A program made the position numbers and the translations under genes. The notes below the pieces were generated by a model. It searched no databases. It worked only from the letters and a program-made list of their open reading frames with translations, and was not told where the DNA came from. Shown piece by piece: positions 58,222-60,519 of a stretch of DNA of 64,000 nt. Position 1 is the first letter of the stretch. Each line of letters opens with the position of its first letter. The stretch is taken from the NCBI GenBank assembly GCA_049841135.1, contig JASGHK010000008.1, positions 339,272 to 403,271 of the forward strand, read 5' to 3'. Origin of the DNA: Myxococcales bacterium (GTDB lineage: Bacteria > Myxococcota > Myxococcia > Myxococcales > UBA5297).

Positions 58222-60519
58222 CTACTTCAGGTCCAGCGCGGCCACGCCGGGGAGGAACTTGCCCTCGAACATCTCGAGCGAGGCGCCGCCGCCGGTGCTG
58301 ACGTGGGTGACCTTGGTGTCGAAGCCCATCTGGCGGATGGCCGCGGCCGAGTCGCCGCCGCCGACGATGGTCATGGCGCCCTTGCCGGTCGCCTCGGCGA
58401 TGGCCTTGGCGACGGCCAGGGTGCCCTCGTCGAAGCCCTTCATCTCGAACACGCCCATCGGGCCGTTCCAGAAGACGGTCTTCGCGCCGGCGATGGTCTT
58501 GGCGTAAAGGTCGCGGGTACGCGGGCCGATGTCGACGCCCATCCAGCCGTCCTCGAGGACCTCGACGGGCTTGGACGGGGAGCCGGCCGCCACCTTCTGC
58601 GTGGCGACGTGGTCCAGCGGCAGGACGATCTTCTTCCCCTTGGCCTTGGCCAGGTCGAGGATCTCCGTCGCCATCTTCAGGACCTGCTTCTCGTTGCCCT
58701 TCTTGTCGACGACCACCTTCTCGTACTTGCTGGAGCCGACGTCCTTGCCCATGGCCTTCATGAACGTGTAGGCCATCGCGCCGCCGACGAGGACCTCGTC
58801 GACCAGGCTCAGGAGGTTCTTGATGACGAAGAGCTTGTCGCTGACCTTGGCGCCGCCGAGGACGGCCACGAACGGACGGCCGGGGTTCTTGAGCGCCTTG
58901 TTGATGACGTCGACTTCCTTCTGGACCAGGTAACCGGCCACGCCGCCCTTGAGCAGCTTGGGCACGCCGGTCATCGACGCGGCGTCGCGGTGGCTGGTGC
59001 CGAAGGCGTCGTTGACGTAGAGGTCGGCGAGCTTGGCCAGCTGGGCGCTGAACTTCTCGTCGTTGGCGGCCTCGCCCTTGTAGAAGCGCAGGTTCTCGAG
59101 CAGCGCGACCTCGCCGTCCTTGAGCTCGGCGACGGCCTTCTCCGCCTTCTCGCCAACGCAGTCCTCGACGAACTTCACGCTCTTGCCCAGGTGCTTGGCG
59201 AGCACCTCGGAGCAGGCCTTGAGGCTGAACTCGGCCTCGTAGCCCTTCTCGGCCGGGCGGCCCAGGTGGCTGGCCAGGACGACCTTGGCGCCGGAGTCCA
59301 TCGCCTTCTTGATCGTCGGGATGGCGCTGACGATGCGGAAGTCGTCGGTGACCTTGCCGCCCTCCATCGGGACGTTGAAGTCGACGCGGATGAAGACCCG
59401 CTTGCCCTTCATGTTGAGGTCGTCGATGGACTTGGTCTGGATGCTGTCGCCGGCGTTCACGCCGAGCTTGGCCATGTGCAGCGTCAGGTCGACGACGCGC
59501 ATCGAGTAGCCCCACTCGTTGTCGTACCAGCTGACGACCTTGAAGAAGCGCTTCTCACCCTTGAGGTTGTTCTCCAGGGTCGCCTTGGCGTCGTAGATGG
59601 ACGAGCGGTTGTCGTGCACGAAGTCCGTGGAGACGAGCTCCTCGGAGGTCACGCCCAGGATGTCCTTCAAGTAGGTCTGGGAGGCGTTCTTGAGCGCCTT
59701 GTCGATCTCGTCGATGGAGGTGTCCTTCGCGGTGCGGAAGGTCAGGTCCACCACCGAGACGTCCGGGGTCGGCACGCGGAAGGCCATACCGGTGAGCTTG
59801 CCCTTGGTGGCCGGGAGCACCTCGCCGACGGCCTTCGCGGCGCCGGTGGAGGACGGGATGATGTTCACCGCCGCGGCGCGGCCGCCACGCCAGTCCTTCT
59901 TCGACGGACCGTCGACCGTCTTCTGGGTCGCGGTGTAGGCGTGGATGGTGGTCATCAGGCCGGTCTCGATGCCGAACTCCTTCATCAGCACGTGGACGAC
60001 CGGGGCCAGGCAGTTGGTGGTGCAGCTGGCGTTGGAGACGATGTGATGCTTGCGGGGGTCGTACTCGTCGTGGTTGACGCCCATGACGATGGTCTTCACG
60101 TCCACGCCCTTGCCCGGGGCGGAGATGATGACCTTCTTGGCGCCGGCGGCGAGGTGGCCGCGCGCGAGGTCGGACTCGGTGAAGAGGCCGGTGGCCTCGA
60201 TGACGATCTCCACGCCCATCTGCTTCCAGGGCAGCAGCGAGAGGTCCTTGGGCGCCGGCAGGCACTTGATCTTGCAGCCGCCGACCACGACGACGTCGTT
60301 CTCCTTGGCGTCCGGCGAGTTCTTCTCGGTGCGGATCTCGCCCTTGAAGCGGCCGTGCACGGAGTCGTACTTGAGCTGGTAGGCGAAGTAGTCGGCGTCG
60401 GTGGAGACGTCGACGCAAGCGACGACGTCGATCTCCTTGCCGAGCACGCCCTTCTCCAGCATGGCGCTGACGACCTGGCGGCCGATGCGGCCGAAACCGT
60501 TGATTGCGACTTTCACCAT
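58222..60519 (-). CDS. gap/pgk: glyceraldehyde-3-phosphate dehydrogenase and phosphoglycerate kinase in one uninterrupted ORF (gap-pgk fusion as sequenced)
   Basis: N-terminal 335 aa: [14 protein letters not shown]...[12 protein letters not shown]...[21 protein letters not shown] (GAPDH). No stop follows. It continues [42 protein letters not shown]...ASHLGRP...GGGASLE (PGK) to 58222. Both enzymes are in the same frame. Confidence 0.8.

Follow-up and report, generated by a model that had tools for sequence, protein, structure and literature searches.

A 64,000-nucleotide stretch of a Myxococcales genome (contig JASGHK010000008.1), referred to here as the window, carries the genes of two neighbouring glycolytic enzymes, glyceraldehyde-3-phosphate dehydrogenase (GAPDH, gap) and phosphoglycerate kinase (PGK, pgk), as a single open reading frame (ORF). 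Does this locus encode one protein with two activities, two separate enzymes, or only an accident of sequence? From the comparison of the ORF with its relatives, we consider that the gene very probably encodes a genuine bifunctional GAPDH-PGK polypeptide of about 82 kDa.

The gap-pgk ORF is found on the minus strand at 58222..60519. It runs from an ATG to a TAG stop at 58222-58224 and encodes 765 amino acids, with coordinates identical to those of the preliminary description, which had already read gap and pgk as one frame of this length. In terms of Pfam domains, the protein contains Gp_dh_N at residues 2-115 (PF00044, 94 bits), Gp_dh_C at 171-332 (PF02800, 221 bits) and PGK at 365-754 (PF00162, 507 bits, E=4e-152). 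The PGK match covers the full model, profile positions 1-379 of 379, with both lobes present. As for NCBIfam, the fusion protein clears the cut-off for type I GAPDH only (TIGR01534, 437 bits, where 367 are required).

Alignments to PDB chains set the limits of the two enzymes. GAPDH chains stop at query residue 350-353, and PGK chains start at query residue 362-364 with their own residues 2-4; chain 1vpe, for instance, aligns its residues 4-396 to query 364-765. The type I, NAD-type GAPDH domain was assigned to residues 1-351 (59467..60519, minus strand) from Pfam, TIGR01534 and these alignments. The PGK domain was assigned to residues 363-765 (58225..59433, minus strand) from PF00162, 1vpe and invariant substrate and hinge residues.

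The length of an ORF says little here. The window has a GC content of 69.7%, and the fusion gene has a GC content at third codon positions (GC3) of 0.98. Because of this GC3, an antisense shadow ORF of 781 amino acids (58303..60648, plus strand) exceeds the real fusion gene in length, and similar spurious long ORFs are common across the window. ORF length alone is thus worthless evidence in this window. Three things take the fusion ORF beyond chance: the two domains share a reading frame, the linker between them keeps the coding signature (GC3 1.0), and the same junction is present in dozens of diverged relatives.

Reading the junction DNA confirmed the earlier claim that GAPDH continues into PGK in frame. 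The last GAPDH codons (ctg cac atg gcc aag) are followed by those of the linker (ctc ggc gtg aac gcc ggc gac agc atc cag acc) and of the PGK start (aag tcc atc gac gac ctc aac atg aag ggc aag cgg), with a stop absent throughout. The linker has about 11 residues (352-362; 59434..59466, minus strand), because of where the PDB chains of GAPDH end and those of PGK begin.

The linker consensus of the group is L-G-V-D-K-G-D-x-L-x-L-K, where the last K is residue 363. Conservation was counted in 30 relatives with exactly the spacing of the window protein. G353 is present in 30/30, as is V, L or I at position 354, and L or I at 360 is found in 29/30. G357 (28/30) and D or E at 358 (27/30) follow closely, while K or R at 356 (24/30), K363 (24/30), L362 (23/30) and D355 (22/30) are somewhat more variable. 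The distance from the WYDNEWGY motif of GAPDH to the RVDFNVP motif of PGK is 45-49 residues in every group member.

In a search of 5.8 billion proteins, more than 34 clusters matched the window protein at 72-88% identity and 100% query coverage, whereas an exact look-up of the protein itself found no entry. The clusters derive from NCBI, ENA, JGI and Logan assemblies. Their members are 763-771 amino acids long and all contain Gp_dh_N, Gp_dh_C and PGK. Where source names are given, these are Polyangiaceae, Polyangiales or Myxococcota metagenome-assembled genomes (MAGs). The same in-frame junction was found in more than 40 independent sequences from all four sources. The DNA of five fused loci was also inspected. 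Among them, the orthologue L083, at 81% protein identity, still has its junction in frame, although its GC3 is as low as 0.49 and stops are therefore not rare in it.

No unfused relative was found at 70% identity or above; all carry an open junction. P0062, which looked unfused, has the junction and ends about 75 residues into PGK. P0072 and P0083, seemingly “PGK-only”, still have the linker and, before it, the C-terminal helix of GAPDH at their N-terminal end. A stop after HMAK in orthologues had been named beforehand as the sign that would speak against a fusion, and every relative at this level of identity is open there, including the orthologue with GC3 of 0.49.

Within the group, GAPDH halves are 72-93% identical and PGK halves 65-89% identical. 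The two sets of identities are correlated (Mantel r 0.53, a value reached by 0 of 2000 permutations). This co-divergence agrees with a single ancient fusion that has been passed on as one piece. The preliminary description had left three options for the locus. Its first, a genuine bifunctional enzyme, is supported by the conserved in-frame junction and by the lack of a conserved internal start, while the loss of a stop codon by point substitution is excluded as a recent event, given that diverged relatives share the junction and that the halves co-diverge. Its third, separate PGK initiation at GTG354 or ATG370, went unsupported, as neither residue is conserved and neither codon has an upstream Shine-Dalgarno (SD) match.

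Residue conservation was taken from an alignment of 65 fused sequences (45-88% identity). The GAPDH active-site motif, read from the sequence at residues 162-173 (60001..60036, minus strand), contains the catalytic Cys166. C166 and H193 are invariant, together with R211 and R248 of the phosphate site. All 65 sequences share the PGK residues R378, D380, N382, R395, H418, R478, R511, K558, N685 and E692 and the G720-G722 loop; for R421, conservation is 90% or higher. We take these PGK residues, by homology, to form the basic patch for 3-phosphoglycerate and 1,3-bisphosphoglycerate, the nucleotide lobe and the Gly-rich loop. By this pattern, both active sites are intact. The chain as a whole is under purifying selection.

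An AlphaFold2 single-chain model, built on the same alignment, has a mean predicted local distance difference test score (pLDDT) of 90.1 and a predicted template modelling score (pTM) of 0.78. Its sole disordered stretch is at residues 200-208, the GAPDH S-loop, which is normally ordered in tetramers. The linker block reaches a pLDDT of about 81 and is probably ordered; residues 356-358 in it form a short helical turn.

Considering only the GAPDH half, the closest structures are those of trypanosomatid glycosomal GAPDHs (PDB 1k3t, 1gyp, 1a7k and 2x0n), at about 72% identity, 554 bits and with almost no gaps. Among these, 1k3t is the Trypanosoma cruzi glycosomal enzyme, about 72% identical to the GAPDH domain. 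Ordinary bacterial and eukaryotic GAPDHs score at most about 390 bits. The half is also about 70% identical to GAPDHs of Symbiodinium and 76-79% identical to unfused GAPDHs from MAGs of Phycisphaerales, Spirochaetes, Negativicutes and Bacteroidota. These similarities place it in a patchily distributed, “glycosomal-type” class.

The two genes are separate in the contrast set, which was drawn from GTDB genomes and comprised at least 80 loci, close relatives of the window gene not being among them. All 68 gap-pgk loci listed there, which are from other phyla, have a stop after gap, then a spacer of about 0-180 nucleotides, then pgk. Twelve further listed loci have gap alone; one is a Polyangia MAG with a GAPDH of the same class, ending in LLTYMVGKG and a stop.

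Fusions of other kinds were also found in the protein data. Linkers of 17-24 residues, rich in Pro and Ala, are present in sequences among P0038-P0049, and a 12-residue junction type is present in P0042, P0045 and P0046. A eukaryote-type junction, which keeps the PGK initiator as “KKMGNK”, is seen in P0084-P0106, one of which is labelled at source “putative glyceraldehyde-3-phosphate dehydrogenase + kinase”. Fusions in the reverse order, PGK-GAPDH, were found in P0056, P0058, P0059, P0061, P0077-P0082, P0096, P0101, P0115 and P0119. The PGK halves of the other fusion types are 41-51% identical to that of the window protein, with conserved catalytic residues. Unrelated linkers and divergent PGK halves suggest that the other junction types arose in independent fusion events.

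Among representatives clustered at 50% identity, GAPDH precedes PGK in about 5 of the top 150 (P0084, P0142, P0171, P0172 and P0138), although the clade of the window protein has no fused representative at this clustering and the search therefore says little about abundance. P0138 is a polyprotein of 2089 amino acids with four GAPDH units and one PGK. P0139 and P0140 proved to be PGK-PGK tandems. With so few of the top representatives fused, yet several junction types, the GAPDH-PGK fusion is rare but recurrent. As a separate observation, the fused gene of the second junction type (P0038-type; L086/L087), whose genome has a GC3 of 0.40, lies directly upstream of an F-type ATP synthase operon (atpB-E-F-H-A).

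That enzymes next to each other in glycolysis should be fused is no great surprise as such, and several systems can be compared with this one. In Thermotoga maritima and T. neapolitana, the “fus” gene encodes a PGK-TIM fusion that forms a tetramer through its oligomeric partner, and free PGK is made from the same gene as well (PMC7729029). Like the window protein, it is a bacterial covalent glycolytic fusion from a gap-pgk-tpi cluster with PGK as one partner. Unlike the window protein, the Thermotoga enzyme has TIM as the other partner and PGK at the N-terminal, the fused reactions are not consecutive, and a free PGK form exists which nothing in the window gene suggests. The NCBIfam model for PGK-TIM (NF010569) gives the window protein 508 bits against a cut-off of 883, over profile positions 2-391 of 645, that is, the PGK half only, and no TIM domain was found in it by Pfam.

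Stramenopiles and other eukaryotes have mitochondrial TPI-GAPDH fusions, and a dinoflagellate GAPDH-enolase transcript fusion is also known (PMC3527533). TPI-GAPDH resembles the window protein in joining GAPDH covalently to a neighbouring pathway enzyme, and differs in that TPI is N-terminal (the upstream side), and in being eukaryotic and equipped with a signal for mitochondrial targeting. In the usual bacterial operon, gap-pgk(-tpiA), the same enzymes occur in the same order, both full length; unlike it, the window gene has no stop, no ribosome-binding site in a spacer and no downstream tpiA. Non-covalent GAPDH-PGK complexes, or a “metabolon”, involve the same pair and the same proposed benefit, the hand-over of 1,3-bisphosphoglycerate. 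This association is weak and transient, and still under study (PMC4192631, PMC11804712), in contrast to the covalent 1:1 association in the window. Lastly, the other GAPDH-PGK and PGK-GAPDH fusions in the databases have unrelated linkers or a reversed domain order.

We found no description of a natural GAPDH-PGK fusion in the full-text papers searched, an absence that is not proof. A 2020 review on the forms of PGK names only PGK-TIM as a fusion (PMC7729029).

As for function, the chain would consist of an N-terminal phosphorylating, NAD-type GAPDH joined via a short linker to a complete PGK. The GAPDH moieties would tetramerise, giving a particle with a GAPDH4 core and four PGK arms, one at the C-terminal helix of each subunit. 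The tether would join the N-terminal lobe of PGK, the one that binds 1,3-bisphosphoglycerate and 3-phosphoglycerate, and R378, D380, N382 and R395 are located 16-33 residues past the linker. Because the tether attaches at this domain, the product would be released beside the binding site of the next enzyme, and the acyl-phosphate made at Cys166 would be set free within a few nanometres of the PGK acceptor site. Coupling could work in either direction, glycolysis or gluconeogenesis, with the stoichiometry of GAPDH to PGK fixed at 1:1. The likely benefit would be proximity coupling, together with protection of a labile and reactive acyl-phosphate intermediate.

That the fusion channels 1,3-bisphosphoglycerate is plausible; the ordered 11-residue linker and the attachment at the substrate lobe of PGK speak for proximity only. 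Given a genuine bifunctional polypeptide, we put the chances of a real kinetic coupling advantage at just under even. A stronger proposal is that the linker docks the 1,3-bisphosphoglycerate lobe of PGK on the active-site face of GAPDH, that a GAPDH4-PGK4 particle hands the acyl-phosphate over directly in either direction, and that the repeated origins of the fusion reflect selection for this hand-over. We offer it tentatively and think it rather unlikely to hold as a whole.

Of the competing explanations, the one that survives best accepts the one-chain fusion and denies the channelling. The fusion would be kept for 1:1 co-expression, co-folding or stability, or because it is hard to revert, as a neutral “Rosetta-stone” protein. 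In most bacteria gap and pgk are adjacent, often 0-20 nucleotides apart (L052, L042, L049 and L012), so that a small deletion would fuse them, and the existence of several junction types with unrelated linkers agrees with this. In a passive tether, however, one would expect both length and sequence to drift, whereas the linker has a fixed length, has Gly and Asp positions that are invariant or nearly so, and is predicted to be ordered. The recurrence of the fusion in both domain orders also suggests selection for the pairing itself. We regard an uncoupled fusion as doubtful, though it keeps a real share of the probability.

A different possibility is that PGK is also, or only, made separately, by internal initiation at ATG349 (59475), GTG354 (59460) or ATG370 (59412), three in-frame codons within 59410..59475 on the minus strand. 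SD-independent initiation exists in bacteria, and in one relative the NCBI annotation pipeline (PGAP) models a 417-amino-acid PGK from the equivalent of Met349. The energies of the duplex with the anti-SD sequence argue otherwise. A GAGG motif (60526..60529, minus strand), 6 nucleotides 5' of the main ATG at 60519, gives -7.3 kcal/mol. With the main starts of five relatives added, all six values lie between -5.6 and -9.9 kcal/mol. None of the three internal candidates has an SD match; their energies (-0.2, -1.5 and -0.2 kcal/mol, respectively) are weaker than the mean background within the ORF, -4.0 kcal/mol.

The candidate codons also vary among relatives. Met370 is present in 4/30, with Leu in 23/30, and position 354 is V, L or I, encoded by GTC or CTG in L081, L083 and L084. 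No conserved Met or Val start codon was found in the linker among the 30 relatives. At the level of sequence, the gene thus looks like a bifunctional fusion without an independent downstream start. Furthermore, with internal initiation the GAPDH frame would still run through PGK, and the fusion would be made as well. Separate production of PGK by this route is improbable.

Two other ways to obtain a separate enzyme were considered and rejected. Met340 (GYS-M-RV) is preceded by an SD-like match of -7.1 kcal/mol, which consists of the codons for E-W-G (GAGTGGGG), and relatives vary at this position among M, C, V, N and L. Programmed frameshifting, as proposed for Thermotoga pgk-tpi, could release free GAPDH; a slippery heptamer is absent at the junction, and the out-of-frame TGA codons are as expected from GC-rich sequence.

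Several points do weigh against a single, coupled polypeptide. Met349, in the GAPDH C-terminal helix, is kept in 23/30 relatives, with V or I in the other 7/30, and could conceivably act as a weak start without an SD sequence. The NCBI pipeline calls a PGK of 406-417 amino acids inside some fused orthologues, one of them from the Met349 equivalent as noted above, which is a gene-caller decision rather than data. No PDB chain covers both the GAPDH and the PGK domains, and no proteomic or biochemical data on a GAPDH-PGK fusion were found in the full-text papers searched. Kinetic channelling between free GAPDH and PGK has itself long been disputed. With these points counted, the reading of the gene as one bifunctional GAPDH-PGK remains the preferred one.

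The fusion might instead be made and then cut in the linker, giving free GAPDH and PGK as in the processing of a polyprotein. Conceivably, a protease could recognise the conserved linker motif. On the other side, the linker is only about 11 residues long and has a predicted ordered structure, the five gene contexts examined contain no linked protease, and both PGK-TIM (PMC7729029) and TPI-GAPDH (PMC3527533) function uncleaved, which makes such processing highly improbable.

Lastly, an error in sequencing or assembly, or the recent loss of the gap stop through a point mutation, would be favoured by a GC3 of 0.98, at which stops are rare and read-through ORFs arise easily, but the in-frame junction in more than 40 independent sequences, the fused low-GC orthologue L083 and the conservation of the linker at the amino-acid level effectively refute it.

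The surroundings of the gene agree with a unit of its own. A terminator-like hairpin (58142..58176, minus strand) with 15 pairs, 12 of them G-C, is followed by a T-rich tail and begins 45 nucleotides past the stop. It sits between the fusion gene and the convergent gene at 57407..58111 (plus strand), a PP2C/SpoIIE-like gene that is the 3' neighbour, and could terminate both. There is no tpiA directly downstream of the fusion gene, and no second gap or pgk was found in the window. The fusion gene is thereby predicted to be self-contained, with its own ribosome-binding site and terminator.

Other features were observed nearby. In L084 and L085, too, there is a PP2C gene, located downstream of the fused orthologue at a distance of two genes. 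The intergenic region 5' of the fusion gene contains a perfect tandem repeat, GTCCACCAA, in 4.4 copies (100% matches) at 60896-60935, and a weaker 9-nucleotide repeat is present at 60828-60851. A protein of 775 amino acids is encoded at 54992-57319 (plus strand), with a signal-peptide-like N-terminus and many Cys-rich repeats; no matches to it were found in Pfam or NCBIfam. Its C-terminus (GCGCQSG, a hydrophobic stretch and RRRR) resembles the MYXO-CTERM sorting tag, for which NCBIfam gave no match.

In public sequence data and annotation, the fusion is present but unrecognised. NCBIfam has a model for bifunctional PGK/TIM and none for GAPDH/PGK. Fused orthologues such as HOX46941.1 (P0121), MFO0560598.1 (P0129) and MCC6524585.1 (P0032) are inconsistently annotated, and some are named merely “type I glyceraldehyde-3-phosphate dehydrogenase”. 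As a consequence, a pathway reconstruction can list pgk as absent when it is not, or begin the PGK model at an incorrect codon.

The substrate passed between the two enzymes gives the fusion its wider interest. 1,3-bisphosphoglycerate is labile, reactive and present at very low concentration; its direct hand-over has been argued for decades, and modelling of the weak contacts between the two enzymes continues (PMC11804712). A covalent GAPDH-PGK whose short linker is conserved, maintained in a whole bacterial clade and evolved again elsewhere, is a natural object for kinetics and cryo-electron microscopy, and a template for engineered glycolytic scaffolds. If direct hand-over proved true, this family would provide a natural, covalent test system for the dispute over channelling between GAPDH and PGK.

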